A DNA stretch of 64,000 bases from an uncultured Gemmatimonadales bacterium (lineage in GTDB: Bacteria; Gemmatimonadota; Gemmatimonadetes; Gemmatimonadales; Gemmatimonadaceae): NCBI GenBank assembly GCA_963851265.1, contig CAWKNZ010000001.1, positions 128,001 to 192,000 of the forward strand, written 5' to 3'. A model generated the notes under the pieces. The model searched no databases. It was given only the letters and a program-made list of their open reading frames with translations, and was not told the origin of the DNA. Of the stretch, positions 874-55,111 are shown piece after piece. A program made the translations under genes and the position numbers. How positions within the stretch are numbered: the first letter of the stretch is position 1; the number at the start of each line of letters is the position of its first letter.

Positions 874-1992
874 ATGTCCACGCCGCCGGCGCCCGCGCCG
901 CCCACCCTCGACCGCGTCTGCGTCGTCCTCCTCACCGGGCTCGGCGACGTCGTGCACGGCCTGCCGGTCGTCACGGCGCTGCGGCGTGCCGGCGTCACGC
1001 GGCACGTGACCTGGGTGGCCGAACCGATGCCCGCGCAGCTGCTCGTCGGGCACCCGGCGGTCGACCACGTCGTCCCGTTCCGGCGTCGCGAGGGGTGGCG
1101 CGGCGTGGTCGCGCTCCGCCGCGCGCTCGGCGCCGCGGCGCGCGCGGCCGGCGGCTTCGACGCCGCGCTCAACTTCAACGTGTATTTCAAGAGCGCGTGG
1201 CCGATGCTCTTCGCCGGCGCGCCCCTGCGCCTCGGCTTCGGGCCCGAGCGCGCCAGGGACGGCGTGTGGCTCGCCGCCAACCGGCGCGTGCCGCCCGGCC
1301 CGCGCCGGCACACGCAGGACATGTTCCTCGAGTTCCTCGACGCGTTAGGCGTGCCCTACGCGCCGCCGTCCGCGCCGGCCGACTGGGGGCTGGACGTGCT
1401 CACCCCCGCGGAGCGCGCCGCGCAGGCGGCGTGGCGCGCGGCGCGCACGGGGCGCCCGCGCGCGGCCATCGTCCCCGCCTCCGCGGTGGGCGCCAAGGAC
1501 TGGCCGCCCGAGCGCTGGGCGGCGGTCGCCGACGTGCTCGCCGCCCGGTACGGGTTCGAGGTCGTGCTCGTCGGCGGCCCGGGGGCGCACGAGACCGCCG
1601 CGGCGCGCGAGGTCGCCGCGCGGGCCGCGCACCCGCCCACGTGGGCGATGGGCGACGGCGTGCGGCGCGTGGCGTGGACCTTGGGGGCGTGCGACCTCGT
1701 GCTTGCCCCCGACACGGGGCCGCTGCACCTCGCGCGCGCGCTGGGCGTGCCCGTGGTGGGGCTGTACGGCCACACCAATCCGTGGCGCGTGGGGCCGTAC
1801 CGCGCCTACGAGGACCTCTGGGTGGACGCGTACACGCCCCCCGGTGCCGCCCCCGACGCGAGCGCGTTCGACCCGCCGCAGGACGACCGCATGAAAGCGA
1901 TCGCGGTCGAGCAGGTGCTCGAGCGCGTGGAGCGGGCCGTGGCACGCTATGGCGTGCTCGGGCGCGCCGCCCGACCGACGGCGCACGCGTAA
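874..1992 (+). CDS. Glycosyltransferase family 9 (ADP-heptose:LPS heptosyltransferase-like)
   Basis: LTGLGDVVHGLP, KDWPPERW, DTGPLHLARALGVPVVGLYG motifs. Confidence 0.9.
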   Translation: MSTPPAPAPPTLDRVCVVLLTGLGDVVHGLPVVTALRRAGVTRHVTWVAEPMPAQLLVGHPAVDHVVPFRRREGWRGVVALRRALGAAARAAGGFDAALNFNVYFKSAWPMLFAGAPLRLGFGPERARDGVWLAANRRVPPGPRRHTQDMFLEFLDALGVPYAPPSAPADWGLDVLTPAERAAQAAWRAARTGRPRAAIVPASAVGAKDWPPERWAAVADVLAARYGFEVVLVGGPGAHETAAAREVAARAAHPPTWAMGDGVRRVAWTLGACDLVLAPDTGPLHLARALGVPVVGLYGHTNPWRVGPYRAYEDLWVDAYTPPGAAPDASAFDPPQDDRMKAIAVEQVLERVERAVARYGVLGRAARPTAHA

Positions 1993-2059
1993 GGCGCGCC
2001 GCTCTCAGGGCGCGGCACGCGGATTGACTCAGTGTACGGGCTTCTCTCAGCCCCACCGC

Positions 2060-3265
2060 ATGCTCTCCGCACTCATTTTCGACCTCGACGGCACGCTCGT
2101 CGACACCAACGAGGCGCACACCGAAAGCTGGATCCGCGGCCTCGCCGAGCACGGCTACAAGGTGGCCCACGACCGCATCCGCCCCGAGATGGGCAAGGGT
2201 GGCGACAACCTCTTTCCCGACCTGTTCGGGCAGGAGGCCGAGGAGAAGCACGGCGAGCAGGTGCGCACGTCGGTCGGGAAGCAGTACGCCAAGGTCGTCG
2301 CGGAACGCGGCGTCACGCTCTTCGACGGCGCGGTCGAGCTACTCGCCGAAGTCAGGCGCCGCGGCATCCGTACGGCGCTCGCCACCTCCAGCGGCGAGGA
2401 CGACCTCAAGACCACCTTCGGCGCGCTCGGCGTCGACCTGCGCGAGCACGTCGACGAGGTCGTGATGAAGGACGACGTCGCGGCGAGCAAACCTTATCCC
2501 GACGTCGTGCTCGCCGCGCTCAAGAAGTTGAAGCTGTCGCCCGCGGAGTGTGCGATGGTGGGCGACACGCCGCACGACGCGGAAGCGGCGAAGCGGGCGG
2601 GGGTGGTCACGATCGGCTTCCTCGCCGGCCACATGAACGACGTGCGCACGCTGATGGGCGCCGGTGCACGCCGCGTGTACGAAGGCCCGGCCGACCTGCT
2701 CGCGCACCTCGACGAGGCGCTCGCGGTCGCGAGCCCGACCGCCGTCCGCCTCACCGACGAGCGCATGCAGGCGATGATGCGCGAGGCGCTGGCCGCGGCC
2801 GAGGACGGGATGGCGGCCGGCGAGGCGCCGATCGGGTGCGCGATCTTCGACGGCCATGGCCGGGTGGTGGCGCGCGGCTACAACGAGATGAACGCGACGC
2901 AGAACAAGACCGCGCACGCCGAGATCGTGACCTTCGCGAAGGCGGCCGGTAAGCTGCCGCTCGACGCGCACGACTTCGTCCTCGTCTCGACGCTCGAGCC
3001 GTGCGTGATGTGCACCGGTGCGGCGATGGAAGCCGCGGTCGACACGATCATCTACGCGCTGCAGGCGCCGGCCGACGCGGGGTCGGGGCGGGTGCGCCCG
3101 CCGGAGAGCCCCGAGAGCCAGATGCCACGCATCGTCGGCCGCGTGCTCGCGGACGAGAGCCGGGCGCTGTTCGAGCGCTGGCTCACCCGGCACCGGGGCG
3201 AGCCGCAGGCCTCGTACATCGAACAGCTACTCGCCCTCGTGGACGACGGGCACGCGGCGGCATGA
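2060..3265 (+). CDS. HAD phosphatase fused to a TadA/CDA-type zinc nucleoside deaminase
   Basis: N-terminal IFDLDGTLVD, KPYPD, MVGDTPHD; C-terminal HAEI...LEPCVMC. Confidence 0.88.
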   Translation: MLSALIFDLDGTLVDTNEAHTESWIRGLAEHGYKVAHDRIRPEMGKGGDNLFPDLFGQEAEEKHGEQVRTSVGKQYAKVVAERGVTLFDGAVELLAEVRRRGIRTALATSSGEDDLKTTFGALGVDLREHVDEVVMKDDVAASKPYPDVVLAALKKLKLSPAECAMVGDTPHDAEAAKRAGVVTIGFLAGHMNDVRTLMGAGARRVYEGPADLLAHLDEALAVASPTAVRLTDERMQAMMREALAAAEDGMAAGEAPIGCAIFDGHGRVVARGYNEMNATQNKTAHAEIVTFAKAAGKLPLDAHDFVLVSTLEPCVMCTGAAMEAAVDTIIYALQAPADAGSGRVRPPESPESQMPRIVGRVLADESRALFERWLTRHRGEPQASYIEQLLALVDDGHAAA

Positions 3266-3711
3266 GCGCGCCGCGTACTGAACCGCCGAATGCGCCGCCG
3301 GTCACCGGCGTACTCGAGACGGCGCTCTACGTGGCCGACATCGAGCGTGCCGCGGCGTTCTACGAGCGCCTGCTCGGCTCGCGCGTGCTGCTCGACGAGC
3401 CCGGGCGCATGCGCGCCCTCGACGTCGCCGAGCGGCAGGTGTTGCTGCTGTTCGCGATCGGCGCGTCGGAACGCTCGAACCCCGTGCCAGGTGGGGTCGT
3501 CCCGCCACACGACGCGCGCGGGCACATCCACGTGTGCTTCGCGATCCCTTCCACCGCCCTCGACGCGTGGGAGGCGCACCTCGCCGCGTCGGACATCGAG
3601 GTGATCAGCCGCGTGCACGCCGAGCGTGGTGGGACCTCGCTCTACTTCCGCGACCCCGACGGGCACCTCGTCGAGCTGGCCACGCCGGGGTTGTGGCAGG
3701 GGGTGTACTGA
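3262..3711 (+). CDS. VOC/glyoxalase family protein
   Basis: LETALYVADIERAAAFY, HVCF, SLYFRDPDGHLVEL; ATGA overlap with upstream stop. Confidence 0.9.
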   Translation: MSAPRTEPPNAPPVTGVLETALYVADIERAAAFYERLLGSRVLLDEPGRMRALDVAERQVLLLFAIGASERSNPVPGGVVPPHDARGHIHVCFAIPSTALDAWEAHLAASDIEVISRVHAERGGTSLYFRDPDGHLVELATPGLWQGVY

Positions 3712-3740
3712 GGCCGGCGCGAATCCGTCCGGCGCCTACA

Positions 3741-3762
3741 GCCCCCCGCGATTGCGGGGGGC
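3741..3762. terminator. GC hairpin between convergent genes (probable bidirectional terminator)
   Basis: gccccccgc-gatt-gcggggggc perfect 9-bp stem. Confidence 0.6.
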
Positions 3763-3775
3763 CACGCCGAGCACG

Positions 3776-3928
3776 TCAGACGACGGGCGAGCGCCCGCGA
3801 ACGAAGTGCAGGATCAGGGCGATCACCGCGATGACCAGAAGCAGGTGGATCACTGCGGCAGTCACGTGGAACGCGAGGAAGCCGAGCGCCCAGAGGACGA
3901 AGAGCACGATTGCGACGGTGAGCAGCAT
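3776..3928 (-). CDS. 50-aa small membrane protein, lmo0937/DUF5670-like
   Basis: MLLTVAIVLFVLWALGFLAFHVTAAVIHLLLVIAVIALILHFVRGRSPVV; GGAGA RBS upstream; below ORF-track cutoff. Confidence 0.85.
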   Translation of the reverse strand: MLLTVAIVLFVLWALGFLAFHVTAAVIHLLLVIAVIALILHFVRGRSPVV

Positions 3929-4260
3929 TGGGGGTCTCCGGAGTGGGAAAGGCATCGCGGCGCGGGTGCATCCCGACCGTGCACGTCACTTACGCATAGC
4001 CCGGGCCTGTCCGTACTTGGGGCCGCCATTGTGGCACTCGTGCCACAGTCCAGGCCTGCCGCGGCCGACCATCCGCCCTCTCCGCCCGACGTCGTTGGTC
4101 GCGTGCAGCAGTGCGTCCCGACGCGACGGCGTGGACGCCACGTTCGGCGTCACCGCGCGTTCGTACAGGATGGACGCGTGTCGCACCCGAATTGCCGAAC
4201 GGTACCGGGCTCGGGCTCGCCGTCCGCTGCCACGTCGCGCAGCGGATCGGCGGCGACGTG

Positions 4261-4302
4261 CATGTAGCAACCGACATGTAGCAACCGACACGTAGCAAGC
4301 GA
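4261..4302. repeat. Three tandem 14-bp direct repeats
   Basis: catgtagcaaccga / catgtagcaaccga / cacgtagcaagcga. Confidence 0.9.
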
Positions 4303-4733
4303 GCTCGGCGTTGGATCGGCCTTTGCAACCGCGCCGGCGCCGGCAGCCCCGGACAGCGCCGGTGCCACTTCGCACAACGCGTCACGGATCGAACGGGGGA
4401 GGCTCATGCTCGGACACGTTCGCGATGTCGTTCACACGACCGCTCGGCTCCGCGAAAGCGTGCTCGTCCCCGACGTGGCATCCGTCACCCAGACCGACCT
4501 CGAGGACCATCTCGGAACGTTCCTCACCGATTTCGCCCAGCAGTGCACGAGCCCGACGGGCAATTGGCCGGTATGCCGGTCTGGTCGCGTTGGACGACGG
4601 CAGTTGAGTGATCGATGCGAGAACCGCTCGATCAGTTCGACCGCCGTGCCACGTTCGGAGTAGCGCCAATGTTGCATTCCCATAGTTTCCGAGAGCACGA
4701 CTTCTCTTGGCTGCACCGGTAGGATCACTCGTC

Positions 4734-5507
4734 ATGGGCCCAACTCCACACACCGTCACTCCTCCGACCGACGCGCCCGCGGTGGCGCCACCGGGCGCGC
4801 TTGCGGACACCAACGGCGTGGCGGGCCGCGTCGTTTTCATCGAAGACGACCAGCTGGTGTCTCGCCTGTTCCAGCGCGTCCTGCAGGAGGCGCACTTCGA
4901 GGTGGTGACCGCCGCGAGCGTGGCCGAGGGGCGCCGCGCGCTGCTCGGCGCGCACGACGCGGTACTGCTGGACCTCGAGCTGCCCGACGCGAGCGGGCTC
5001 ACCCTGCTCGAGGAGCTCCGCGCGCGCGGCGACCGCGCCCCGGTCGTGATCCTGACCGGCCGCGGAGGAGACGACGAGATCGTGCGCGGTCTGGACGCGG
5101 GGGCGGACGACTTCGTCGAGAAGCCCGTTGGCGGGGCGGTGCTGCTCGCGCGACTTCGCGCCGTCATCCGCCGTGGCGCCCACCAGGCGTCGGGCCGTCG
5201 CGAGGCTGGCTCGCTCGCCCTCGGTCCGCTCTCCCTGGACCGGTTGGCCCGCCGGGCGATGGTGGACGGGCACACGCTCGACCTCACGCCCAAAGAGTTC
5301 ACGTTGCTCGAGTATCTCCTGCTCTGCGCAGAGGAGACGGTGACGCGTGCCGAACTCCTCGATCACGTGTGGGAACTCCAGGGCGAGCCGGAATCCAACG
5401 TCGTGGATGCCCATATGGCGCGGCTTCGCGCCAAGCTGCGGGCCGTCTCGCCCCGCCCCGACATCCGCACCGTTCGCGGCAAGGGGTTCGTGCTCACCGC
5501 GACCTGA
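4734..5507 (+). CDS. OmpR-family response regulator
   Basis: Receiver (IEDD, LLDLELPD, ILTG, EKP) plus winged helix (LTPKEF, NVVDAHMARLRAKL, TVRGKGF). Confidence 0.95.
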   Translation: MGPTPHTVTPPTDAPAVAPPGALADTNGVAGRVVFIEDDQLVSRLFQRVLQEAHFEVVTAASVAEGRRALLGAHDAVLLDLELPDASGLTLLEELRARGDRAPVVILTGRGGDDEIVRGLDAGADDFVEKPVGGAVLLARLRAVIRRGAHQASGRREAGSLALGPLSLDRLARRAMVDGHTLDLTPKEFTLLEYLLLCAEETVTRAELLDHVWELQGEPESNVVDAHMARLRAKLRAVSPRPDIRTVRGKGFVLTAT

Positions 5508-5603
5508 GCGGCGCGGCAGCCGCCCCGGCGGCGCCGCACGGCAGGGCCGCCCGGCAGGAACGCACGGCAGGAACGCCCAGGATCGTGGGCGGTACAGGAG
5601 CGA

Positions 5604-16587: not shown

Positions 16588-17659
16588 CGCGCGCGACGCC
16601 CGGAACTCCGCCCCCCGCCGTTGGCGCGGCGCGATCGTCGGGCTCGGCGGGATCGCGACGGGCTCGCACCTGCCCGCGTTCCGCGCCACGCCGGCCCTGC
16701 GCCAACGCGCGGAGGTCGTCTGCGCGGTCGACCCGCGGCACGCGGCGGCGGGCACGTTAGGCGGCCTGCGCGTCCTCCCCGACCTCGACGCGCTGGGCGG
16801 GGCGGGCGTCGACTTCGTCGACCTCGCGACGCCGAGCGCGACGCACGTCGCGCTCTCCCGGGACGCCCTCGCGCGCGGGCTGCACGTGCTCTGCGAGAAG
16901 CCGGTCGCCACGCGCCGCGCCGACGCGCTCGCGCTCGCCCGGCTCGCGCGCGAGGCGGGGCGCGTACTCGTGCCCTGCCACCAGTACCGCTTCAACCCGG
17001 TGTGGCGGCGCATCGGCGCGTGGCTCCGGGACGACGCGATCGGGCGCTGGCACCTGATCGAGGTGAGCGTGCACCGCGCCGGCGCCGACCCCGGGCAGCA
17101 GGGCGCCGACGAGGCGCTTCCCTGGCGCGTGCGCCGCGCCGACGCGGGCGGCGGCGTGCTCGTCGACCACGGCACCCACCTGCTCTACACCCTCCTCGAC
17201 CTCGGCGGCGCCCTGCCCGACCGCGTGAGCGCGTACACGGGGCGGCTGGCGCACGCGGAGTACGAAGTCGAGGACACGGCCGAGGTGCGCCTGGAGTACC
17301 ACGACGCCGAGGGCGACCGCGCGGCGCGGCTGTTCTGCACGTGGGCCGACCGGCGGCGCGAGACGCGGGTGAACGTGGTCGGCGCGCGCGGCGCGATCCG
17401 CTGGGTCGACGGCCTGCTCACGCTCGAGCGAGACGGCGAGGTCGAGACGCACGACGTCTCGCGCGAGCTGGACAAGGCCGCGTACGCGGGTTGGTTCGCC
17501 GAGCTGTTCGAGGACTTCGTGGGCGTGCTCGATGCCGGCGCGGGGAGCCAGCGGGCCGAGCGGGCGCTCGACGACGTCGTGCGGGTCGCAACGGTGCTGG
17601 AGGCGGCGTACGGGTCGGCCGCGTGCGGTGCGGGGGTGCGGCCGCTCGGCGCCGATTAG
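16574..17659 (+). CDS. Gfo/Idh/MocA-family oxidoreductase
   Basis: IVGLGGIA, HVLCEKP, GGGVLVDHGTH. Confidence 0.93.
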   Translation: MPAADARDARNSAPRRWRGAIVGLGGIATGSHLPAFRATPALRQRAEVVCAVDPRHAAAGTLGGLRVLPDLDALGGAGVDFVDLATPSATHVALSRDALARGLHVLCEKPVATRRADALALARLAREAGRVLVPCHQYRFNPVWRRIGAWLRDDAIGRWHLIEVSVHRAGADPGQQGADEALPWRVRRADAGGGVLVDHGTHLLYTLLDLGGALPDRVSAYTGRLAHAEYEVEDTAEVRLEYHDAEGDRAARLFCTWADRRRETRVNVVGARGAIRWVDGLLTLERDGEVETHDVSRELDKAAYAGWFAELFEDFVGVLDAGAGSQRAERALDDVVRVATVLEAAYGSAACGAGVRPLGAD

Positions 17660-17730: not shown

Positions 17731-19440
17731 ATGCGCACGCCCCTCTCCGCCCGCCGCGCCCTCGCGGTGCTCCTCGCCATCTCGTCCGCCGCCCTCGGCA
17801 CCGCCGCCGTCGGCACCGCCGCCGTCGCGCAGCAACCCGCGCCGCCCGCCGGGCCGCCCGCGGCGCCGCCGCGCCAGCCCGACGCCTCGGACTCGATCAA
17901 GTACGTCTACGCGAGTACGCCCCGCCTCGACGCGCTCAAGGCGGAGGCGGCGCGTGAGGTCGATGCGCGCGCGAAGCAGATCCAGGTGATGGTCGACCAG
18001 GTGTTCTCGTACGGCGAGCTCGGGATGCAGGAGGTCGAGACCTCGCGCTACCTGTCGGGGATCCTCGAGCAGAACGGGTTCACCGTCACCCGCGGCGTGG
18101 CCGGCCTCCCCACCGCGTTCGTCGCGCGCTGGGGCTCGGGCAAGCCCGTGATCTCGCTCGGCTCCGACATCGACGACATCCCGCAGGCGGGGCAGAAGCC
18201 CGGCGTCGGCTACCGCGACCCGATCGTCGCGGGCGCGCCCGGGCACGGCGAGGGGCACAACTCGGGCGTGCCGCTCAACATCGCGGCCGCGCTCGTGGTG
18301 AAGAAGATCATGGAGCGCGAGCACCTGCCGGGCACGCTCGTGCTCTGGCCCGGGGTGGCCGAGGAGGCGATGGCGGGCAAGGCGTTCCTAGTGCGCGACG
18401 GCGTGTTCAAGGACGTCGACGTCACGCTGTTCACGCACGTGGGCGACCGCCTGGCCGTGAGTTGGGGGCAGAGTGGGAGTAATGCGCTCATCTCGGCCCT
18501 CTTCAAGTTCCGCGGCACCAGCGCGCACGCCGCGGCCGCGCCGTGGCGCGGGCGGAGCGCGCTCGACGCGGTGATGCTGATGGCCAACGCGTGGGAGTTC
18601 CACCGCGAGCACATGGAGCTGCAGCAGCGCTCGCACTACGTGATCCCCGACGGCGGCGACCAGCCTAACGTGGTGCCCACCACGGCGAGCATCTGGTTCT
18701 ACTTCCGCGAGCGCGACTACGACCGCACGCGCCGGATGTTCGACGACGCGCGCAAGATGGCCGAGGGCGCGACGCTGATGACCGGCACGCAGCTCGACAC
18801 CGTGCAGATGGTCGGCTCGGGGTGGAGCGGGTACTTCTCGCGCCCGGTGGCCGAGGCGATGTACCAGAACATCAAGGCCGTGGGCATGCCCACGTGGGAC
18901 GCGCGCGACCAGGCACTCGCGCGCGGCATCCAGCGCGAGCTCGGCGTGCCCGACAGCGGGCTCTCGACGCGCCCGGGGCGACTCGTCGGGCCGGTCAACG
19001 AGGCCACGCGCATGGGCGGCGGCTCGGACGACATCGGCGACGTGAGCTGGACCGTGCCGACCATCACGCTCAACTATCCGTCCAACATCCCCAACCTGCC
19101 CGGCCACAACTGGGCCAACGCCATCGCGATGGCCACGCCCATCGCGCACAAGGGCGTCGTGGCGGGCGCCAAGGTGCAGGCGATGACGATGCTCGACCTG
19201 CTGTTCCAGCCGAAGCTCGTCGCCGACGCGTGGGACTTCTTCAACACGGTGCAGACCAAGACGGTCAAGTACCGCCCCTTCTTCGCGGCCACCGACAAGC
19301 CCCCCACGTGGCTCAATGAGGGGATCATGGCGAAGTACCGCCCCGAGATGAAAAAGTACTATTACGATCCCAAGAAGTACGGCACGTACCTCGAGCAGCT
19401 CGGCATCACCTACCCGACGGTGCGCAAGGTTGTCCAGTAG
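17731..19440 (+). CDS. Exported M20 amidohydrolase (AbgB-like)
   Basis: Signal peptide; GHGEGHN, AEE, SAHAAAAPWRGRSALDA, GGSDDIGDVSW. Confidence 0.9.
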   Translation: MRTPLSARRALAVLLAISSAALGTAAVGTAAVAQQPAPPAGPPAAPPRQPDASDSIKYVYASTPRLDALKAEAAREVDARAKQIQVMVDQVFSYGELGMQEVETSRYLSGILEQNGFTVTRGVAGLPTAFVARWGSGKPVISLGSDIDDIPQAGQKPGVGYRDPIVAGAPGHGEGHNSGVPLNIAAALVVKKIMEREHLPGTLVLWPGVAEEAMAGKAFLVRDGVFKDVDVTLFTHVGDRLAVSWGQSGSNALISALFKFRGTSAHAAAAPWRGRSALDAVMLMANAWEFHREHMELQQRSHYVIPDGGDQPNVVPTTASIWFYFRERDYDRTRRMFDDARKMAEGATLMTGTQLDTVQMVGSGWSGYFSRPVAEAMYQNIKAVGMPTWDARDQALARGIQRELGVPDSGLSTRPGRLVGPVNEATRMGGGSDDIGDVSWTVPTITLNYPSNIPNLPGHNWANAIAMATPIAHKGVVAGAKVQAMTMLDLLFQPKLVADAWDFFNTVQTKTVKYRPFFAATDKPPTWLNEGIMAKYRPEMKKYYYDPKKYGTYLEQLGITYPTVRKVVQ

Positions 19441-19464: not shown

Positions 19465-20541
19465 GTGAACCGCCGCGTTCAGGTTGGCGCGTTCCTCGCC
19501 GGCGTCGCGTTCCTCGCCTGGCTCGTCGTCACCACCGGTGCGCGTGCGATCCTCCGCGACCTCGCGCGCACCGGCTGGACGTTCGTCCCGCTCGTCCTGG
19601 TCTGGGGCGGCGTCTACGCGCTGAATACGGTCGCCTGGCTCGCGCTGCTGCGCGGGGCCGTCACGGCCGACGCCGCCGACGCGCGTGGGCAGCCGGCGCC
19701 GGGGGTGAGCGCGCTCGAGGGGATCGGCGTCGTGCCGTTCCCCCGCGCGTTCGCGATCACCGTCTCCGCGTTCGCGCTCAACTACGTCACGCCGTTCGTC
19801 AGTCTCGGCGGCGAGCCGTTCAAGGGCGCCGCGGCGGCGCGCTGGGTGGGGCGGCCGCGCGCGGCGGCGAGCGTCGTCGGCTTCCGCATCGTCCACACCC
19901 TCGGCCAGTTCCTCTTCTGGGTGCTGAGCATCCCGGTGGCGTGGGCGGTGCTCCCCGCGGACCGCACGATGCGCGCGCTACTGCTCGCGGCCAGCGTGGT
20001 GCTCGTCCCGGCGAGCGCGGGCGCGCTGCTGCTGCTCCGCGCGCGCGTGCTCGAGCGCGGGCTCGACGCGCTCGGCCGCGTGCGGCTCGGCCGCGCGCTC
20101 GACGCGTTAGGCGCGCGGCTGCTGGCGCGCCTCGAGCCGCGCCGCGCCGCGCTCGCCGCGGTCGACGCGGACCTCGCCGCGGTGGCCCGCCACCCCGCGA
20201 CGCTCGCCGTCGCGCTGGGCGCGGAGGTCGCCGGGCGCTTCCTGGCCGCGGTCGAGTTCGTGCTCGTCGCGCGCGTCGTCGGCGCGCGGTTCGGGTACGC
20301 CGACGCGGTGGTCGCCGCGGGCGTGTCGCAGGTCGTGATGAACCTGCTGTTCTTCGTCCCCTTCGAGGCCGGCACGCGCGAGGGCGGGCTCTTTCTCGTC
20401 GCGCGGCTGCTCGGACTGGCGCCGGCGGTGGGCGTCTACGCCGCGCTCGTCACCCGGCTGCGCGAGCTGACGTGGATCGGGATCGGGCTGGCGCTGATCT
20501 GGGCGACCGGGTCCGGCGGGCGGGCGCGGAACGAGGCGTAG
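19465..20541 (+). CDS. LPG_synthase_TM / flippase-like integral membrane protein
   Basis: Multi-TM; NYVTPFVSLGGEP, FVPFEAGTREGG, RLREL motifs. Confidence 0.85.
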   Translation: MNRRVQVGAFLAGVAFLAWLVVTTGARAILRDLARTGWTFVPLVLVWGGVYALNTVAWLALLRGAVTADAADARGQPAPGVSALEGIGVVPFPRAFAITVSAFALNYVTPFVSLGGEPFKGAAAARWVGRPRAAASVVGFRIVHTLGQFLFWVLSIPVAWAVLPADRTMRALLLAASVVLVPASAGALLLLRARVLERGLDALGRVRLGRALDALGARLLARLEPRRAALAAVDADLAAVARHPATLAVALGAEVAGRFLAAVEFVLVARVVGARFGYADAVVAAGVSQVVMNLLFFVPFEAGTREGGLFLVARLLGLAPAVGVYAALVTRLRELTWIGIGLALIWATGSGGRARNEA

Positions 20542-27757: not shown

Positions 27758-29814
<2,057 letters not shown>

Positions 29815-30009
29815 CGGACGGACACGCCGGCGGCGTGCTGGCGTGTCCGGAGCCGCGGGTGAAGCATCGCGGCGACCGCCGCGCGCTCGGCCTGCTGCGC
29901 AACGCGTTCGGCCGCGAGCTGCTGCACCCGCGGGGGTGAGGCCCGCGCGGCCGCCGAGCGCCTAACGTCATGGCGCCCGGCGGCCCGGCGTGCGGCGCTT
30001 TACCGCGCC

Positions 30010-30900
30010 TTACGGCGCCTTGTTGCTCGGCCGGATGGTCTGGAACTCGTAGGAGAGGACGCTCTTGAGCGTGAGCTTGTCGCTCCCCGGGGTGAGCCCC
30101 TTCACGAGGCCGAGGTTCCAGTCGAGCCCGGGGATGAACCGGACGTCCACCGTCGGGACGATCGCGTGCCGCTGGTCGCGGACGGAGAGCAACTGGCCTA
30201 ACGGCCCGACCTGGTTGTAGTACTCGACCCCGGGCTGGAGCAGGTGGTAGCGCCGCCAGTAGATCCCCCCGGCGAAGCCGCCCGAGAACCGGCTCCCGGC
30301 GTTCTCGGTGCCGACCATCTCGCTGCCGCCCCCGTGCTCGCCCGACGACCCGCCGCCGGAGGACGCGCGCTGCTCGTTGCTGAACGTGCGCCCGACGATC
30401 GGGTTGAGCACGAGGCGGAAGTCGTTCAGGTCGCGCTGCAGGATGAGCCGCGCCTCGAGTTCCTGCGCCGCCTCGTACTTGGCGCGCGGCACCGAGTACT
30501 CCAGGTACACCGCCGGGTCGAGGAAGCGCTGGTAGCGGCTCCCGAAGCGGTAGCGCCCCTCGATGCGTGCGGCCGTGTAGCGCAGCGGCAGTCCGGGCGC
30601 GCTCTCGAAGTCGGTGTAGCCGGCGAGCGTGAACCGGTCGGTCATCCCGTACTCGAGTTCGGCGCTGTGTGCGGTGACGCCCTGCTCGCTGACGGTCCGG
30701 CCGAAGTGGCTGTAGTCGAGCGTGCTGCGCGCCACCCACGAATCCCACAGTGCGGGCTCCGCCCACCCCTGCATGGGCGTGTCCCACTGGTACACGCGGT
30801 AGCGCTGGGCCGACGCGGGTGCGGCGGCGGCGCCCATGAGGCACGCCGTCGTTAGGCATGCGGCCGTGAGGCGCGCGGCGGTCGAGGTGCGTGCGATCAT
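30010..30900 (-). CDS. Exported, probable outer-membrane beta-barrel protein
   Basis: Signal peptide APASA-Q; amphipathic aromatic-rich strands (ELEYGMTDRF, YLEYS, PGVEYY, LSYEF); ATGA-coupled to upstream gene. Confidence 0.65.
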   Translation of the reverse strand: MIARTSTAARLTAACLTTACLMGAAAAPASAQRYRVYQWDTPMQGWAEPALWDSWVARSTLDYSHFGRTVSEQGVTAHSAELEYGMTDRFTLAGYTDFESAPGLPLRYTAARIEGRYRFGSRYQRFLDPAVYLEYSVPRAKYEAAQELEARLILQRDLNDFRLVLNPIVGRTFSNEQRASSGGGSSGEHGGGSEMVGTENAGSRFSGGFAGGIYWRRYHLLQPGVEYYNQVGPLGQLLSVRDQRHAIVPTVDVRFIPGLDWNLGLVKGLTPGSDKLTLKSVLSYEFQTIRPSNKAP

Positions 30901-32195: not shown

Positions 32196-32638
32196 CTTGG
32201 CGAAAGGGTGTGGAGGACCGGCGTCGCGCCCGGCCGTGCGCGGACGGGCGGCCGCGGACGGTGGGCACACGGATTCCCCAACGCATCCGGTGCGCCGGCG
32301 CGGTCCCGATCGGGGGGTTGACCGGGCCCGCGCCGGCCGGTCGCGGCCCCGCCTGCTGCCCCGCCCGCCACCCCGTCCGCGGCGGCTCCGCGGGCCACTC
32401 CGCGTCCCGGTCGCGCGACGCGGCGCGCGGCGCGGCGGAGCGCGGCGCGACGGGACGCCGCGAGTGCCTAACGGTGCGCGATCGCGGTCGCCGGACGACG
32501 TCCGGTGCCTAACGATCGGTGCCTGCGCGCGCGCGCCGTAGCCCTCGCGCTACGGCGCGCGCGCGCGGAACGGGTGTTGCACCCTGGGGCGTCCCACGGT
32601 TCGACCGTCTATATCCACTCCGCTTGGAGGGTACGCCG

Positions 32639-41073: not shown

Positions 41074-41481
41074 GTGTCCACCACCCGTCCACACCGCACG
41101 CCGCGCCGCCGTACGGGCTTCACGCTCGTCGAAATGCTCATCGTGGTGGTGATCATCGGGATCCTCGCCGCGGTCGTGATCCCGAAGTTCTCCAACACGA
41201 CGGCGAAGGCCGACCTGGCGAACGTGAAGTCGGACCTGCACAGCATCGTGCTGACCGAGGAGGGCTACTACAACGAGCACGCGGTCTACACGGCGAGCCT
41301 CGCGCTGCTGGGGGTGCAGTCGTCGCAGGGCGTGATCACGACGGTCGTGGAGGCCGGGCCGCAGGGGTACTCCGCGATGGCCGTGCACCCGGCCGCGGTG
41401 CCGGTGACGTGCGCGGTGTTCTACGGCGCGGCCACGCCGCTCGCGCCCGCGGTCACCGAGGGCGTCATCACCTGCAAGTAG
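41074..41481 (+). CDS. Type IV pilin / prepilin-type protein
   Basis: G|FTLVEMLIVVVIIGILAAVVIPKF; C-terminal Cys pair. Confidence 0.93.
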   Translation: MSTTRPHRTPRRRTGFTLVEMLIVVVIIGILAAVVIPKFSNTTAKADLANVKSDLHSIVLTEEGYYNEHAVYTASLALLGVQSSQGVITTVVEAGPQGYSAMAVHPAAVPVTCAVFYGAATPLAPAVTEGVITCK

Positions 41482-41503: not shown

Positions 41504-41791
41504 GTGTCGGGACGTCCGCCCCTCCGCGAGTCGTACCGCGAGTTCGCCCTGCGCCGCGACGGCATGTTGCACGCGATGGACGGCGGACTCTGGCTGCACC
41601 GCCACGTGTGGCGCGGCACGCCGATGGCGCACCTGGTCTCGACGGACCGCGAGGCGCTGCTCGCCTACGGGCGCGCGGCCGGGCTCGACGCGCGGCGGCT
41701 GCAGTTCAAGCCCTTGAAGGACCCGCGCACGGGCGAGCGGCGGAACGCGTGGCACTGGGACCTCGTGGGGCGGTCGCTGCCGCCGCGTTAG
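41504..41791 (+). CDS. DUF4031-like small protein
   Basis: WRG..MAHLVS...LLAY...GL....LQ...HWDL. Confidence 0.7.
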   Translation: MSGRPPLRESYREFALRRDGMLHAMDGGLWLHRHVWRGTPMAHLVSTDREALLAYGRAAGLDARRLQFKPLKDPRTGERRNAWHWDLVGRSLPPR

Positions 41792-41831
41792 GCACGGGGC
41801 CGCCGGCCGCGCGGTGCGCGGCCGCGCGCCG

Positions 41832-43127
41832 TCAGTCGAGCGCCCGCCCGCGCGTCTCGGGCGCGCGCGCGAGGGCGACGAGCGCGGGCACGGCCATGAG
41901 CGCGGCGTAGGCCGACACCGGCGCGGTCGAGCCGTAGCGCGCGAGGAGCGCGACGCCGACGATCGGCGCGACCGCGCCCGACGCCACCGAGGCGAGCTGA
42001 TAGCCTAACGAGAAGCCCGTGTAGCGCGCGGCGGTCGGGAACAGCTCGACGAAGAACGCCGACATGCCGCCGACGATCACCCCGTGGGCGATTCCGCCGC
42101 CGACGGCGACGAGCGTGAGGCCGAGCGCGCCGGCCGGGGCGCCCAACCGGAAGAGGGCGAAGGACCACGCGGCCGCGGCGAGGAGGCCGGCGGCCGTGAC
42201 CGGGCGCCGCCCGACACGGTCCGACCACCGCCCGGCGAGCACGATCACGCCCACCTCGACGGCCGAGGCGACGACCGTGGCGGTGAGCGCGACGCCGCGC
42301 GGGCGGTGCAGCACCCGCGTCACCCAGACGACGAAGAAGGTCGTGAAGACGTAGAAGAGCGCGTTCTCGCCGGCCTTCACGCAGAACACGGTGAGCAGGG
42401 CGCGCCAGTGCGCGGCGACGGTGGCCGCGAGCGGCGCGCGCGCGTCGGGCGCGCGCGCGGCCCGGCGCGCCTGGTACGCCTCGAACAGCGGCGACTCCTC
42501 GATGCGCGCGCGCATCCAGAGCCCGACGGCGACGAGCACGCCCGAGAGCAGGAACGCGACGCGCCAGCCCCACGCGCCGAACTGCGCCTCGGTGAGGGCG
42601 CCCGAGAGCAGGGCGAGCACGCCCGCCGCGGCGACGTTGCCCGCGGGCCCGCCGGTCTGCGGCCACGCGGTCCACTCGCCGCGGCGTGGCGCGTCCAGCG
42701 ACTCGGCCACGAGCAGCACCGCCCCGCCGACCTCGCCGCCGACCGCGACGCCCTGCACGAGCCGGAGCAGGACGAGCAGCGCGGGGGCGACGGGGCCCGC
42801 CTGGGCGTAGGTGGGCAGGAGCCCGACGCCGACGGTGGCCGCGCCCATCAGCAGGAGGCTCGCGACGAGGGCGCGCTTGCGCCCGCGGCGGTCGCCGAGC
42901 GCGCCGAAGAGCGCGCCGCCTAACGGTCGGGTGGCGAAGCCGACCGCGTAGGTCATCAGGGCGAGCAGCGTGCCGGTGAGCGGGTCGGTGCGGGGGAAGA
43001 AGGCGCGGTCGAAGACCAGCGCGGCGGCGGAGGCGAAGACGAAGAAGTCGTACCACTCGACGACGCTGCCGACGGCGCTGGCAACCAGCACCCGTCGCGT
43101 GTCGCCCGCCGGTGCCGTCGCGAGCAT
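41832..43127 (-). CDS. MFS metabolite:H+ symporter (MHS, ShiA-like)
   Basis: VEWYDF, RPLGG..FG..GDRRGRK, QGVAVGGEVGGA, WGWRVAF, ELFP...RY. Confidence 0.93.
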   Translation of the reverse strand: MLATAPAGDTRRVLVASAVGSVVEWYDFFVFASAAALVFDRAFFPRTDPLTGTLLALMTYAVGFATRPLGGALFGALGDRRGRKRALVASLLLMGAATVGVGLLPTYAQAGPVAPALLVLLRLVQGVAVGGEVGGAVLLVAESLDAPRRGEWTAWPQTGGPAGNVAAAGVLALLSGALTEAQFGAWGWRVAFLLSGVLVAVGLWMRARIEESPLFEAYQARRAARAPDARAPLAATVAAHWRALLTVFCVKAGENALFYVFTTFFVVWVTRVLHRPRGVALTATVVASAVEVGVIVLAGRWSDRVGRRPVTAAGLLAAAAWSFALFRLGAPAGALGLTLVAVGGGIAHGVIVGGMSAFFVELFPTAARYTGFSLGYQLASVASGAVAPIVGVALLARYGSTAPVSAYAALMAVPALVALARAPETRGRALD

Positions 43128-46696: not shown

Positions 46697-46936
46697 CGCC
46701 GGAGGCGCGCTGTTAGGCTCTCCACTCGATGCCGCCGCCGGGCCGGTGCCCGGGCGCTGACACGCCGGGCACGCGGTCCGCGCCGAGATGGGCGGCCGGG
46801 ACGCGGGCTCGCGTCGTGAACGCCTCAACCGCGACGATCGGAACCCGGACGTCGCGGGGTCGCCGCCGCCCCCGGATCCGCGCGAAAGCGCCTCGCCGAC
46901 GCGCGTCGCCGGGAGCGCGGCGTCAGCGGCGCCGGG

Positions 46937-48859
46937 TCACGCGGTGAACCACGACGCCCACCCGGAGCTCCCGTCCCACGACGTCGCGTAGACCAGCCCG
47001 TCCGAGCCGACCGTGAACAGGTCCAGGTGCGCCGTGAGGCGCGAGATCGCCGCGACCGTTCCGCCGGGCTCTCCCACGCCGCCCGCCACCCAGAACCACC
47101 CGGCCCAGCCCGTGGCCGCGTCCCACCACGTGCTGTAGACGCGGTTGTCGGTGCCGATCGTGAACACGTCGAGGTGGTTGGTGAAGCGCGACACCGCCGT
47201 GACCTGCGCGCCCGGCGACGCCACGCCGCCCGAGACCTGGAACCACCCCGCCGCCCACCCGGTGTGTACGTCCCACCAGGTCGACATCGTGGCGCCGTTC
47301 GCGGCCGTCGTGAACAGGTCGAGGTGGTCCACGAAGCGCACGACCGCGTTCACCACCGAGTCGGGGCGGCACACGACGCCGTTGAGCGGGAACCACGCGT
47401 GCCAGCCGCTCGCCGCGTCCCACCAGCAGCTGTAGACGCGCTCGTCCGTGCCCACCGTGAACAGGTCGAGGTGGGTGGGGAAGCGTGCGACGGCGGTCAC
47501 GGTGGCGCCGGGCGCGGCCACGCCGCCCATCACCTGGAACCAGCCGGCCCAGCCCGTGCTCGCGTCCCACCACGTCGACACGGTGGCGCCGTCGGCCGCC
47601 GTCGTGAACAGGTCGAGGTGGTTGATGTTGCGCGAGACGACGTTCACCGTCGACCCGGGGCGGCACGCCATCGTGCCGAGCGGGAACCACGGGTGCCACC
47701 CGCTCGACGCGTCCCACCAGCAGCTGTAGACGCGGTTGTCGGTGCCGACGGTGAACAGGTCGAGGTGGTTGGCGAAGCGCGACACGGAGGTGACCGGCGA
47801 GCCCGCGCCGCCGGGCGACGCGACGCCGCCCTCGACCTGGAACCAGTTGGCCCACCCGAAGCTCGCGTCCCACCAGTCCGACATCGTGCGCCCGTCGTTG
47901 GCGACGGCGAACACGTCGAGGTGCGTGGGCACGCGCGCGACCGCGCTCATCGGCGTGCGCGGTCGTGCGGCGAGCGTCGCGCGCGGCGGCCGGAGCACGC
48001 AGGCGTTGGCGCTGTTCGACCACTCGGTCTGGATCGTGAACCCGCCGAGGTTCGTCACCGACCCGTTGCAGATGTCGCCGATCTCGTTGCCGGTGGCGCT
48101 GTCCCACCACGCGTTGAGCGCGGGGTCGGTGATGGCCTCGCACAGCTCGTGGCTGCTCACCTTGGTGAGCGTGTTGAGGATCGTCCCGAACGAGCACCCG
48201 CCGCACGTCACGAACGGCTCGACGGCGTAGTAGACCGCGCCGGTCGGGGCGTTGAAGTGGCCGTGGTAGCCGCAGTACTGCACGCACGACGACTGGGTGC
48301 CCTGGGTCGAGACGACGCCCGGGGGCAGGTACACGAAGTAGAGCGTGTTGGGCGTGACCGCCGGCACGGTCCCGGCCGCGATCCACCCCGCGAGGGCCGC
48401 CTGAATCTGCCCGTCGCTCACCGTGCCGCTCCCGCCGCCGGGCTCCGACGTGGTGATCGTGCGCGAGCCGATGTGGGTGCCGTGGCCGATCGGCGCGCCG
48501 GGGAGGCTGTACTCGGCGAGCTGGTCGATGAGCGAGCTGGTGAGGATGAAGTTGAAGAAGGCGTCCACCTGACCGCGCAGCGGCGCCTGCGCCGGCTGCG
48601 TCCACGCCGCGCCCCAGTAGACGGTGACGACCTGCACCGCCGACAGCACCGGGCCGCCGTGGTACGTGAGGTGGGGCGGCGGCGCGGCCGGCGCCGGGGC
48701 GCCGGCGGCCGGAGTGCCTAACGTTAGGCCCTTGTCGTCCGCCGGCGGCGTGTGCAGCGGGACGATGTTGCGCGGCCCCACCGGCTGCGCGCCCGCGAGT
48801 TGGGGCGTGTACGAGGCGAGGGGCGCGCCCTCTCGCGTGCTGCCGTGTTCGGGTGTCAT
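46937..48859 (-). CDS. Phi-1/EXORDIUM-like domain fused to 7 fucose-lectin-type (PLL/AAL-like) propeller repeats
   Basis: LTYHGGPVL...YWG...YCGYH...HELCEAITDP..NAWWD...EIGDIC; seven ~48-aa repeats HLD(L/V)F....D.....WWD...GW..WF. Confidence 0.8.
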   Translation of the reverse strand: MTPEHGSTREGAPLASYTPQLAGAQPVGPRNIVPLHTPPADDKGLTLGTPAAGAPAPAAPPPHLTYHGGPVLSAVQVVTVYWGAAWTQPAQAPLRGQVDAFFNFILTSSLIDQLAEYSLPGAPIGHGTHIGSRTITTSEPGGGSGTVSDGQIQAALAGWIAAGTVPAVTPNTLYFVYLPPGVVSTQGTQSSCVQYCGYHGHFNAPTGAVYYAVEPFVTCGGCSFGTILNTLTKVSSHELCEAITDPALNAWWDSATGNEIGDICNGSVTNLGGFTIQTEWSNSANACVLRPPRATLAARPRTPMSAVARVPTHLDVFAVANDGRTMSDWWDASFGWANWFQVEGGVASPGGAGSPVTSVSRFANHLDLFTVGTDNRVYSCWWDASSGWHPWFPLGTMACRPGSTVNVVSRNINHLDLFTTAADGATVSTWWDASTGWAGWFQVMGGVAAPGATVTAVARFPTHLDLFTVGTDERVYSCWWDAASGWHAWFPLNGVVCRPDSVVNAVVRFVDHLDLFTTAANGATMSTWWDVHTGWAAGWFQVSGGVASPGAQVTAVSRFTNHLDVFTIGTDNRVYSTWWDAATGWAGWFWVAGGVGEPGGTVAAISRLTAHLDLFTVGSDGLVYATSWDGSSGWASWFTA

Positions 48860-49121
48860 GAGGCCCTCCGGGGCGCTCGCCCGGACCATTCCGGGCGCGC
48901 CCTCAATCGTTTCACGACGGCAATAAGTCAAGCGCGCCGGGAGGGCGACGCGCGACGTGCGGCTTCCGGGGCGTAGCACCCTCGCTGCCCGCCCGCCGCT
49001 GCGGCGTGGCGCGCGTGTCAGGGCCCGCCGGGCGCCTGGACGGCGCCGCGCCGCCGTCGTGCCGACCACGCCCGGGCGGACGCTTGCGCGCAGGCCCGGC
49101 CGTCGCCACATTGGCCGGACC

Positions 49122-52199: not shown

Positions 52200-52591
52200 A
52201 CGCGACGGGTCTGGCGGTACGCGCGATTCGCGGCGCGACCGCCGTCGACGTCGACGAGCCCGAGGCGGTGAAGGCCGCGACGCGCGAACTCCTCGCGTGC
52301 ATCGTCGAACGCAACGGCGTGGGTCCGGACGACCTGATCAGCGCCGTGTTCACGGTCACCGGCGACCTCACGAGCACCTTCCCCGCACACGCCGCGCGCG
52401 AGATGGGGTGGACCGACGTGCCGCTGCTCTGCGCGCTCGAGATCCCGGTGCCCGGCGCGCTCGCGCGCTGCGTGCGCGTCCTGCTCCACGTCATGAGCGA
52501 CCGGCCGCGCGCGGCCGTTCAGCACGTCTACCTCCGCGGCGCGGTCGTGCTCCGCCCCGACCTCACCGCCGTGGCCGCGCATGACGCCTGA
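52193..52591 (+). CDS. aroH: Chorismate mutase, AroH class
   Basis: VRAIRGAT, FPAHAAR, EIPVPGAL.RCVR, HVYLRGA..LRPD. Confidence 0.95.
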   Translation: MVNATGLAVRAIRGATAVDVDEPEAVKAATRELLACIVERNGVGPDDLISAVFTVTGDLTSTFPAHAAREMGWTDVPLLCALEIPVPGALARCVRVLLHVMSDRPRAAVQHVYLRGAVVLRPDLTAVAAHDA

Positions 52592-53924: not shown

Positions 53925-53986
53925 GGCCGGTTGCCTCCACCGCCCCTGGCGGGTATCGTGGCGCACCCCGACCTGCGAGGTGTACC

Positions 53987-55111
53987 CTGCCGTCGTTCGT
54001 CCACCCCCGCCGCCTCGGCGCCACGCTCCTCGTCGGCGCCGCCCTGACCCGCGCGAGCGCGCCGAGCGGATGGCGCGTCGACGCGCGGCCCGCGGCGCCG
54101 ACCGTCTCCCCCGCCCTGCTCGTCCTCTCGAAGACCGACCACGTGCTCAGCGTCGTCGACCCCGCGACGCTCCGGGTCGTCGGGCAGGTGCCGTCGGGCC
54201 CCGATCCCCACGAGGTCATCGCGTCGGCCGACGGCCGCATGGCGTACATCTCCAACTACGGAGGCGGCGCGTACCACACGCTCACCCCCGTCGATCTCTC
54301 GGGGCCGCGCGCGCTTCCGGTGATCGAACTCGGCGCGCTCCGCGGCCCGCACGGCCTCGCGGTCGCGGGTGGCAAGGTCTGGTTCACCGCCGAAGCCGCC
54401 AGGGTCGTCGGCCGGTACGATCCCGCGACGGCGCAGGTCGACTGGGTACTCGGCACCGGACAGGACCGCACGCACATGGTCGACGTGTCGCCCGATGGTA
54501 AGCGGGTGATCACGACCAACGTGAGCGCGGGCACCGTGAGCATCCTCGAAGAGCGCGCCGCCCGAGGCCCGGGCGGTCCACCGCCCGGCGCCCCGCCCGG
54601 CGCCCCGCCCGGTCCACCGCCCGGCGCCCCGCCGGGGCCGCCGCCCGGCGCGCCGCGTACCGACTGGACGTCGACGGTGGTGTCCGTGGGCCGGGGCGCG
54701 GAGGGGTTCGACGTCACGCCCGACGGGAAGGAGGCGTGGGTCGCGAACGCGGGCGACGGCACCATCTCGGTCGTCGACCTCGCGGCGCGGCGGGTCGTGC
54801 AGACGATCGACGCCGGCGTGCGGGGCGCCAACCGGCTGAAGTTCACTCCCGACGGCGCGCTCGCCTTCGTTTCGACGTTAGGCGGCCCCGACGTGACGGT
54901 GCTGCGCGTCGCGACGCGGGCCGTCGTGAAGCGCGTGCCGGTGGGGCACGGGGCGGCCGGGCTGCAGGTCCAGCCCGACGGCGCCCGCGTGTACGTGGCG
55001 TGCACGCCCGACGATTACGTCGCGGTGGTCGACGTGCGGTCGCTCGCGGTGGTCGGGCGGATCGCGGCGGGGCGGGAGCCCGACGGGCTGGCGTGGGCAG
55101 TGCGGCCGTAG
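53987..55111 (+). CDS. YVTN/YncE-type beta-propeller protein with Pro-Gly insert; start uncertain
   Basis: Repeats DPHEV..S.DG..AY.SN, PDGK.A.VAN, PDG..VYV; no clean in-frame ATG/GTG near the signal peptide. Confidence 0.8.
   Translation: MPSFVHPRRLGATLLVGAALTRASAPSGWRVDARPAAPTVSPALLVLSKTDHVLSVVDPATLRVVGQVPSGPDPHEVIASADGRMAYISNYGGGAYHTLTPVDLSGPRALPVIELGALRGPHGLAVAGGKVWFTAEAARVVGRYDPATAQVDWVLGTGQDRTHMVDVSPDGKRVITTNVSAGTVSILEERAARGPGGPPPGAPPGAPPGPPPGAPPGPPPGAPRTDWTSTVVSVGRGAEGFDVTPDGKEAWVANAGDGTISVVDLAARRVVQTIDAGVRGANRLKFTPDGALAFVSTLGGPDVTVLRVATRAVVKRVPVGHGAAGLQVQPDGARVYVACTPDDYVAVVDVRSLAVVGRIAAGREPDGLAWAVRP

Follow-up and report, generated by a model that had tools for sequence, protein, structure and literature searches.

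Why should one eight-letter word, spelled with a rare codon, recur in one unrelated gene after another? The question is raised by a 64,000-nt window of a Gemmatimonadales genome (G000:C1:128001-192000, that is, contig C1 of the source genome G000), in which the octamer CGTTAGGC and its reverse complement GCCTAACG stand in 16 exact copies. We found that the word is abundant throughout the genome and in some of its relatives, that it is read at the DNA level without polarity, and that its copies keep their distance from one another and sit in the centre of a halo of raised GC, which suggests that the word marks spots of DNA recombination or repair. With moderate confidence, we read (C)GTTAGGC as a self tag that triggers short homologous-recombination tracts, resembling uptake sequences or the cyanobacterial highly iterated palindrome HIP1 (GCGATCGC), and that spreads by the resulting bias.

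Abundance of the word and its copies in the window

Most PolA look-alikes come from Gemmatimonadota, and among named organisms the closest ParB relatives belong to the Gemmatimonadaceae. The source genome, itself one of the Gemmatimonadaceae (4.60 Mb, 12 contigs, 73% GC), contains 1396 copies of CGTTAGGC, 708 on the forward and 688 on the reverse strand, on every contig and at 0.27-0.41 per kb, and the heptamer GTTAGGC occurs 1762 times, again on all 12 contigs. A codon-aware null, obtained from 20 synonymous-codon shuffles, gave 22-41 coding octamers as compared to 1033 observed. The word is also abundant in other genomes, and the enrichment thus extends beyond this window and this assembly.

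The signal was proposed to be chromosome-wide and free of the polarity of Chi or KOPS (FtsK orienting polar sequences), and both proposals agree with our counts, as sense, antisense, stop, leading-strand and lagging-strand opportunities were converted alike. Of 2880 NCG-Leu-GGC contexts, 780 (27%) use TTA, versus 50 of 21058 control contexts (0.24%), so that the word is retained about 100 times above the background TTA rate. By class, synonymous conversion reached 780/4634 for sense, 167/787 (21%) for antisense Pro-Asn, 129/869 (15%) for Ala-stop and 98/734 for Arg-stop opportunities. On contig C2, where dif lies at about 1,369 kb, the Leu-Gly class was converted in 185 of 1079 cases in leading genes (17.1%) and in 103 of 595 in lagging genes (17.3%), and the Pro-Asn class in 18.6% and 19.3%, respectively. 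In-frame TTA-GGC accounts for 992 of the 1762 heptamers, and GGC follows 1001 of 1292 TTA codons; there are 1288 intragenic sites and 282 intergenic copies.

Strictness is confined to the core GTTAG(G), and the outer letters show graded preferences: conversion is 27% with C as first letter, 11% with T, 5% with A and 3% with G, and the leading C is therefore preferred, not obligatory. The tolerance drifts by lineage, since the genome G012 relaxes the last letter and G235 takes T at the seventh. No flanking consensus was found around 1395 genomic copies. Gene ends are crowded, with the word forming part of 125 of 441 TAA stops and 84 of 759 TAG stops, and copies are denser in convergent spacers (1.35 per kb) than in divergent, promoter-bearing ones (0.33 per kb).

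The preliminary description of the window had located the 16 copies, eight in each orientation, and one TGTTAGGC variant by eye, and its account of them was confirmed in full. Markov models of orders 1, 2 and 3 expect 1.06, 0.57 and 0.44 copies (the description had estimated about two), and CGTTAGGC is the top-ranked 8-mer of the window under all three orders. Nearly every TTAGG or CCTAA had been placed within the word, and 17 of 18 such pentamers indeed belong to GTTAGGC. As had been claimed, nine copies are in-frame NCG-TTA-GGC and others are read as CCT-AAC, CTA-ACG or a TAG stop (one of each); the remaining four copies are intergenic. The rare TTA is used mainly in the word, as GGC follows 9 of the 11 TTA codons that our gene calls contain in the window. 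We called the genes with a simple codon model, and they are not curated annotation. The features of the window are as follows.

1343..1350, plus strand: CGTTAGGC, in frame as GCG-TTA-GGC (Ala-Leu-Gly) in a GT9 glycosyltransferase gene (874-1992, plus)
16755..16762, plus strand: CGTTAGGC, in frame as ACG-TTA-GGC in a Gfo/Idh/MocA oxidoreductase gene (16574-17659, plus); closes a 15.4-kb copy-free stretch
18663..18670, minus strand: antisense copy (GCCTAACG), read as CAG-CCT-AAC-G (Gln-Pro-Asn) in an M20-peptidase-like gene (17731-19440, plus)
20105..20112, plus strand: CGTTAGGC, in frame as GCG-TTA-GGC in an LPG-synthase-TM gene (19465-20541, plus)
28985..28992, plus strand: CGTTAGGC, in frame as CCG-TTA-GGC within gene 28894-29814 (plus), which encodes the C-terminal half of an ABC-F ATPase
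29960..29967, minus strand: intergenic copy with convergent genes on either side
30196..30203, minus strand: in frame as CCG-TTA-GGC in a gene with no Pfam match (30010-30837, minus)
30850..30857, plus strand: intergenic by our gene model, directly upstream of gene 30010-30837 (minus)
32466..32473, minus strand: intergenic copy, first member of a direct pair 41 bp apart
32507..32514, minus strand: intergenic copy, second member of that pair with 32466
41786..41793, plus strand: CGT-TAG-GC, from which gene 41504-41791 (plus) takes its final codon, CGT, and its stop, TAG
42003..42010, minus strand: in frame as TCG-TTA-GGC in an MFS transporter gene (41832-43127, minus)
42918..42925, minus strand: in frame as CCG-TTA-GGC in the same MFS transporter gene (41832-43127, minus), the other copy being at 42003
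46711..46718, plus strand: TGTTAGGC variant, intergenic, 15 bp past the point where a methyltransferase gene stops; as a first letter, T ranks second-best across the genome
48716..48729, both strands: overlapping inverted pair GCCTAACGTTAGGC, a 14-bp palindrome read as GGC-CTA-ACG-TTA-GGC in gene 46937-48889 (minus)
54876..54883, plus strand: in frame as ACG-TTA-GGC in a beta-propeller gene (54143-55111, plus); the last copy before the largest gap of the genome
54884..64000: start of a 45.1-kb copy-free stretch (G000 C1:182877-227962) that runs on past the window end

The host genes are ordinary and unrelated to one another, and the GCCTAACGTTAGGC pair at 48716..48729 is one of 26 pairs closer than 100 bp in the whole genome. 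An Rfam search of the window returned no RNA family match. The ABC-F ATPase gene lies in two frames (27758-28975 and 28894-29814) with ABC domains in both, which is probably a sequencing indel and possibly a real frameshift. A type IV pilin-like gene (41134-41481, with weak PilA/GspG matches) adjoins polA. Elsewhere in the genome, the start of the contig (G000:C1:1-9000) has a lower GC (0.65) and carries foreign-looking genes, among them IS3-like ones; it is either an island or a chimeric join. In a motif-rich region of contig C10, two genes (143206-144099 and 159433-160464) encode NifH-fold ATPases, which we take to be BchL- and BchX-like; the pair hints at a photosynthesis gene cluster.

Spacing, GC halo and turnover of sites

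Copies of the word avoid one another. In-frame neighbours closer than 100, 300 and 500 bp numbered 0, 9 and 36, as compared to 17, 47 and 75 in 500 permutations over synonymous opportunities (46.6±6.2 for those below 300 bp). Neighbours below 300 bp are likewise too few in G001, G004, G012 and G235, with fractions of permutations as low of 0, 0.03, 0 and 0.025, respectively, and the avoidance reaches about 300-450 bp. Long-range spacing is near random (coefficient of variation 1.07), and no periodicity was apparent by eye in pair distances up to 6 kb.

The word also favours GC-rich surroundings. Across octiles of GC3 (GC at third codon positions) of the genes, conversion climbs from 5% to 32% despite the AT-rich codon that is needed, and intergenic word density tracks flanking GC3 from 0.48 to 1.41 per kb, while TTA outside the word shows the opposite trend. 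At distances up to 100 bp from a copy, four-fold sites have a GC of 0.964, which declines steadily to 0.911 beyond 8 kb. Within genes, a symmetric peak of +1.3 to +1.5 points is centred on the copy and gone by 300-450 bp; unconverted look-alike sites have a flat profile with no peak. Codons ending in A and codons ending in T each fall to 0.64-0.76 of expectation within 100 bp of sense copies, on both sides and in every codon class, and A/T-ending codons fall to 0.61-0.87 near the antisense copies, which are fewer. When copies were tested in pairs with unconverted twins from their own genes, AT content at third positions was 3.6% near the copy versus 5.75%, lower in 282 of 391 genes and higher in 103, and 0 of 2000 sign flips were as extreme. 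When the other rich genomes were pooled, it was lower in 60 and higher in 32 of 96 genes (P=0.04), and twin sites in motif-poor genomes lay at 0.975 of the gene mean.

The exclusion zone and the GC halo share one length scale. Stronger codon selection would resist TTA, and the halo therefore points to a local process centred on the word. Recombination accompanied by GC-biased conversion, a better purging of A/T mutations or directed repair may be the source of the halo.

Word-rich genomes are a minority among the relatives. Of 30 relatives, 10 carry 194-6360 octamers and 20 carry 3-65; the rich ones are all four of the same genus, five from other genera of the family and one genome of another family. 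Among 250 further genomes of the phylum, at least 600 heptamers were found in 5 of 53 genomes of the same family. A second family had 3 such genomes among 113, all from a single genus, in which the two remaining members have 419 and 204 heptamers; none of the 81 genomes sampled outside the order exceeded 185. Four unpublished genomes (G011, G078, G117 and G198) are counted in these tallies as motif-poor, and none of our claims depends on them. The densest genomes reach 1.25-1.5 words per kb. Members of one family differ more than 1000-fold in this density, and close relatives range from background up to 1.5 per kb. On a quick single-protein tree, rich genomes are interspersed with poor ones, with five changes of which at least four are forced, and the word-rich state has therefore been gained or lost several times. 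No alternative "dialect" word was found in 4 x 120 kb of motif-poor genomes, and no published description of the word emerged from literature searches on the word and the phylum, which left supplements (methylome tables, REBASE-type lists) outside the search.

Orthologous sites were compared in partial genome samples. In two congeners (77% protein identity), sites were kept at 7 of 14 and 12 of 22 positions; about 9% of unconverted shared opportunities within the genus were converted. Beyond the genus, 6 of 57 sites were still present in rich genomes from four other genera, and four poor genomes had 0 of 50. Word density is held steady while single sites come and go.

Origin and partition loci

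The word is scarce around oriC and parABS loci. The 45.1-kb gap past window position 54876 spans gidA-parA-parB and two perfect 16-bp palindromes taken as variant parS, TGTGGCACGTGCCACA, which stand at G000:C1:192709 and 195715, upstream of gidA and parA. The same pair also flanks parB in G001 and G004, the canonical parS consensus had no match in the genus, and TGTGGCACGTGCCACA is likely a variant parS of the genus. The word itself was rejected as a parS or half-parS, being depleted at par loci and unrelated to the local palindrome.

Three rep-parA-parB loci of G000 (C6:80.7-85.1 kb, C8:256.2-260.5 kb and C9:123.2-127.2 kb), which point to three secondary replicons, fall in gaps of 21.4, 15.2 and 14.6 kb. 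The four parA-parB gaps of this genome rank 1, 3, 11 and 15 among 1774 (Fisher P 3.4e-4, rising to 3.3e-3 when the first is left out; thresholds were chosen post hoc). The origin and par zones have lower GC3, yet 0 coding copies were present within 5 kb of the five loci as compared to 9.2 GC3-matched ones, or to 18.2 when normalised by opportunity. Eight housekeeping windows of G000, used as a control, held 4-11 copies versus 7.7.

A hard exclusion from parS zones was replicated only in part outside these first loci. A 17.8-kb gap spans the rep-parAB locus of G004:C3, and large gaps cover dnaA-dnaN in G114, G206, G159, G008 and G012, whereas the orthologous par locus of G001:C4 has no gap and copies lie only 0.8-1.6 kb from parS in G206, G159 and G114. 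The exclusion was therefore restated as an approximately 0.6x depletion near origins and par loci. In a prospective test on 11 new dnaA loci, 4 copies versus 14.9 were found within 2.5 kb and 25 versus 51.7 within 10 kb, returning to 18 versus 18.6 at 15-20 kb. Fewer opportunities explain part of this deficit (38/153 near versus 165/496 far by the narrow count), and G012 had 13 of its 14 narrow-class opportunities converted at distances up to 10 kb from dnaA. A broader normalisation within 5 kb gave 26 versus 41.3 at oriC (12 loci), 31 versus 52.1 at parS (10 loci) and 6 versus 14.7 at secondary loci (3 loci). Twelve methyltransferase neighbourhoods, which were the only non-origin control outside G000, had 75 versus 81.2 copies; the kin compared in the origin test are non-independent.

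ParB coating blocks other enzymes. ParB spreads about 15 kb from parS, as described in part of PMC9242446.

Other features of these loci were observed. A palindrome, GTTCGGTAACCGAAC, has four copies on C9 at 122.8-123.0 kb, and C12 carries a rep-like gene at 43.6-45.4 kb that is unaccompanied by par genes. Besides the boxes at dnaA, a cluster of DnaA-box-like 9-mers stands just 3' of parB (G000:C1:197572-197651), as it also does in G001, G004, G159 and G124. The distance between dnaA and parAB in the genus is 127-185 kb, with dnaA apart from mnmE (dnaA versus parAB at 11-13 versus 196 kb on G000:C1, 604 versus 731 kb on G001:C5 and 1342 versus 1523 kb on G004:C1); in other genera dnaA and parB are 19-39 kb apart.

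Possible readings: recombination tag, repair signal and others

The preliminary description had proposed an uptake-like sequence, a HIP1-like motif, a nucleoid/segregation site or a modification target. The first two fit the new data best because of the mutual exclusion, the GC halo and the turnover of single sites; the third has become less likely, and the fourth keeps some probability. In the self-tag reading, which is drawn from genome sequences, a protein reader would recognise the word on double-stranded DNA and start short homologous-recombination (gene-conversion) events. It might act by preferential uptake of short environmental fragments, as for the DNA uptake sequences (DUS) of Neisseriaceae and the uptake signal sequences (USS) of Pasteurellaceae, or after uptake, as proposed for HIP1. 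DNA no farther from a site than one fragment or tract length would recombine more often, which would raise local GC by GC-biased conversion or by better purging of A/T mutations; new sites would be favoured only where no existing site is in reach, and the action would be weak where ParB or DnaA coat the DNA. There are precedents in the parts of the literature consulted: DUS spacing matches conversion-tract length in Neisseria (PMC2397512), short-fragment uptake peaks at USS in H. influenzae (PMC7811141), and HIP1 enhances transformation, perhaps by acting during recombination (bioRxiv 2024.09.10.611283; PMC13756078).

Several points weigh against the self tag. ComEC, ComEA-type HhH and DprA were found in 5/5 genomes (3 rich and 2 poor), so that competence genes are equally present in the two motif-poor genomes tested. 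MutL and ScpA were likewise found in 5/5, NucS in 0/5 and RecC in one poor genome only, and competence, repair and SMC genes thus fail to separate the three rich from the two poor genomes. No reader was found; a ComP-family search matched 0/5 genomes, and likewise 0/14 controls. The inverted terminator pairs typical of DUS are rare, with 6 opposite-strand neighbours below 50 bp in about 1750 intervals. The halo is non-significant in each of three non-G000 subsets taken singly (P 0.13-0.18) and weak in G012. Site-directed repair predicts the halo and the exclusion zone equally, and the origin/parS depletion fits an intracellular reader at least as well; this depletion is not a feature reported for uptake sequences in the sections consulted of PMC2397512, PMC1939737 and PMC7811141.

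Directed repair is the strongest alternative, and we regard it as possible though unlikely. Here the word would be the target of an adenine methyltransferase, and methylation would direct local repair in patches of a few hundred bp that shield nearby DNA from GC-to-AT change, a ratchet as modelled by Elhai in which new sites are fixed only where none is already in reach. An asymmetric 6-7-mer with a penultimate A, such as GCCTAAC, is the usual shape of a type IIG or BREX target. A motif scan of our own gene calls revealed a sole long DNA-methyltransferase candidate (G000 C7:582086-585511), a type IIG-like adenine methyltransferase gene that adjoins an SNF2 helicase gene (C7:579717-581996). The methyltransferase matches Eco57I/MmeI in Pfam and, in PADLOC, type IIG (1e-39) and DrmMI (5e-26), and the helicase matches DrmD (8.5e-21); all NCBIfam scores for the pair lie far under the curated cut-offs, and a PDB search with the methyltransferase gave only weak BrxX matches without specificity information. 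The pair resembles what may be a domesticated DISARM-like core. Like class I DISARM (DrmMI/DrmD), BREX (PglX) and type IIG systems, it has a gamma-class adenine methyltransferase beside an SNF2 helicase; unlike them, it is conserved order-wide and not patchy.

This constancy (orthologues in 50/50 genomes of the order tested, from three families, with the helicase adjacent at 17 of 20 loci) is unusual for a restriction-type enzyme and speaks for the repair signal, as does the presence of MutL. The ratchet, in the part of its source consulted (PMC4390886, section 3.4), saturates near one site per kb, with no gain close to existing sites; it thus predicts both an exclusion zone and a saturation comparable to the 1.25-1.5 per kb of the densest genomes. 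Against it, the enzyme is carried equally by all 30 motif-poor genomes tested, and between 12 orthologues from rich and 8 from poor genomes no residue made a clearer distinction than permuted labels did (maximum 0.75 versus a 95th percentile of 0.83). Neither the presence of the enzyme nor its sequence, as compared on a quick tree, predicts the word. The poor genomes sampled have no other iterated word, and a graded, lineage-drifting specificity is more like binding affinity than a methyltransferase target. Two marine Gemmatimonadetes metagenome-assembled genomes lacked both methylated motifs and methyltransferases, according to the portions consulted of PMC8919816 and, in repetition, of 10.64898/2026.06.24.734251.

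Chi (acting with RecBCD/AddAB) and KOPS are short, over-represented, non-palindromic chromosomal words. The present word differs from them by having no replication polarity, and RecC was not found in the three rich genomes tested. It shares with DUS and USS a short, non-palindromic, non-polar sequence in hundreds to thousands of copies, mostly genic at permissive positions, scarcer in compositionally atypical DNA and drifting by lineage (excerpts of PMC2397512, PMC1939737, PMC7811141 and PMC3630211). Non-polar over-representation, above-background orthologous conservation and encoded competence machinery were all found here as well. Unlike DUS and USS, the word has a different and shorter sequence (7-8 bp), belongs to another phylum, is patchy within one family with competence genes that do not match its distribution, and forms almost no inverted terminator pairs, close pairs being depleted overall; the GC halo and the origin/par depletion are not described for DUS/USS in the consulted parts of PMC2397512, PMC1939737 and PMC7811141. 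Given the scarcity of terminator pairs, it would not be placed among them. With HIP1 it shares the form of an octamer over-represented tens- to hundreds-fold against codon preference, orthologous-site conservation and non-random spacing (PMC5861425, in part), and a lineage-conserved DNA methyltransferase, here a candidate (PMC4390886, section 3.4). However, CGTTAGGC is not self-complementary, and the word is therefore not HIP1; in addition, it is found in a minority of the lineages of the order, the poor genomes have no alternative word, and the methyltransferase, present in rich and poor genomes alike, does not track it.

The word is letter-identical to the R' end of local integron attC sites (core R box, GTTRRRY), and in G000 also to the R'' end. 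Matched attC sites end in CGTTAGGC in 23 of 25 cases in G021 and 8 of 9 in G000, and the R'' box ends in ..TAACG, the perfect complement of the word, in 8 of 9 G000 sites, as compared to ..TAACA in 23 of 25 sites of the motif-poor G021. Genomic copies, in contrast, are single and in-frame, and lack L boxes and the imperfect R''-L''...L'-R' hairpin behind a cassette ORF (open reading frame). R''..R' spaced pairs occur at 15 places in G000, with the clear hairpin-type ones in the C6/C10 array. The word is thus not a member of DUS/USS, HIP1, attC or Chi, and its identity with the attC end is striking and kept as an unexplained link. A tentative and rather unlikely extension of the self tag is that a reader tuned to the attC core evolved in Gemmatimonadales as a further class of sequence-specific DNA-exchange signal: short cassette-ended DNA would be captured or recombined preferentially, this bias would have written the word genome-wide, and the copies would be small hotspots with a footprint of GC-biased conversion, shut out of origin and partition zones.

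We consider it improbable that a nucleoid-organising protein binds the word and so coats all replicons except the origin/partition domain, where such a protein would obstruct, or be masked by, ParB spreading or initiation. The ranks of the four G000 par gaps, the G004:C3 gap, the dnaA deficit and the near-normal methyltransferase neighbourhoods are what this proposal would lead one to expect. It is opposed by the partial exclusion outside G000, with copies near parS, no gap on G001:C4 and nearly complete conversion near dnaA in G012, as well as by the variation in density within one family and the absence of periodicity by eye; moreover, a structural protein alone leaves the GC halo unexplained.

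It is more doubtful still that the copies are footprints or decoys of the integron integrase at secondary sites, or reflect a host receptor tuned to the attC end. Besides the word at attC ends, the presence of a G000 integron, with a cassette array at C10:188-211 kb and C6:0.9-1.7 kb and an intI split by a serine-recombinase element (C6:0.9-6.0 kb region), argues in its favour, and in motif-poor genomes many of the few copies lie in attC arrays at steps of about 550 bp. But intI occurs in 16 of 21 rich or intermediate and 20 of 30 poor genomes and does not predict the word, genomic copies have neither hairpin nor flank consensus, and the attC variant GTTAGAC is barely above background (11 of 2154 Leu-Asp contexts). 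In the part consulted of bioRxiv 2022.09.11.507474, genomic targets of the integrase require only GWT, which also tells against this explanation, and insertions at the 1288 intragenic sites would do harm. Scarcely credible, finally, are a codon-level or translational device (a rare TTA, bldA-like), for which the predominance of TTA in the word would speak and which was rejected as antisense Pro-Asn, stops and intergenic DNA also carry it, a polar Chi/KOPS-type signal, given the equal strand rates, and an assembly artefact, given that independently assembled genomes from three families share the word.

Few groups, namely Neisseriaceae, Pasteurellaceae and cyanobacteria, are known to carry hyper-abundant self words, and whether such words reflect a selected signal or molecular drive is still argued. 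The present results add a new word from an abundant and little-cultured phylum, together with two footprints of one length scale, exclusion and a symmetric halo, and cold origins; the underlying process can therefore be tested from population data alone. The word thereby opens bacterial GC-biased gene conversion to a site-anchored test, and it might be used to raise the transformation efficiency of Gemmatimonadota and to help bin their contigs.

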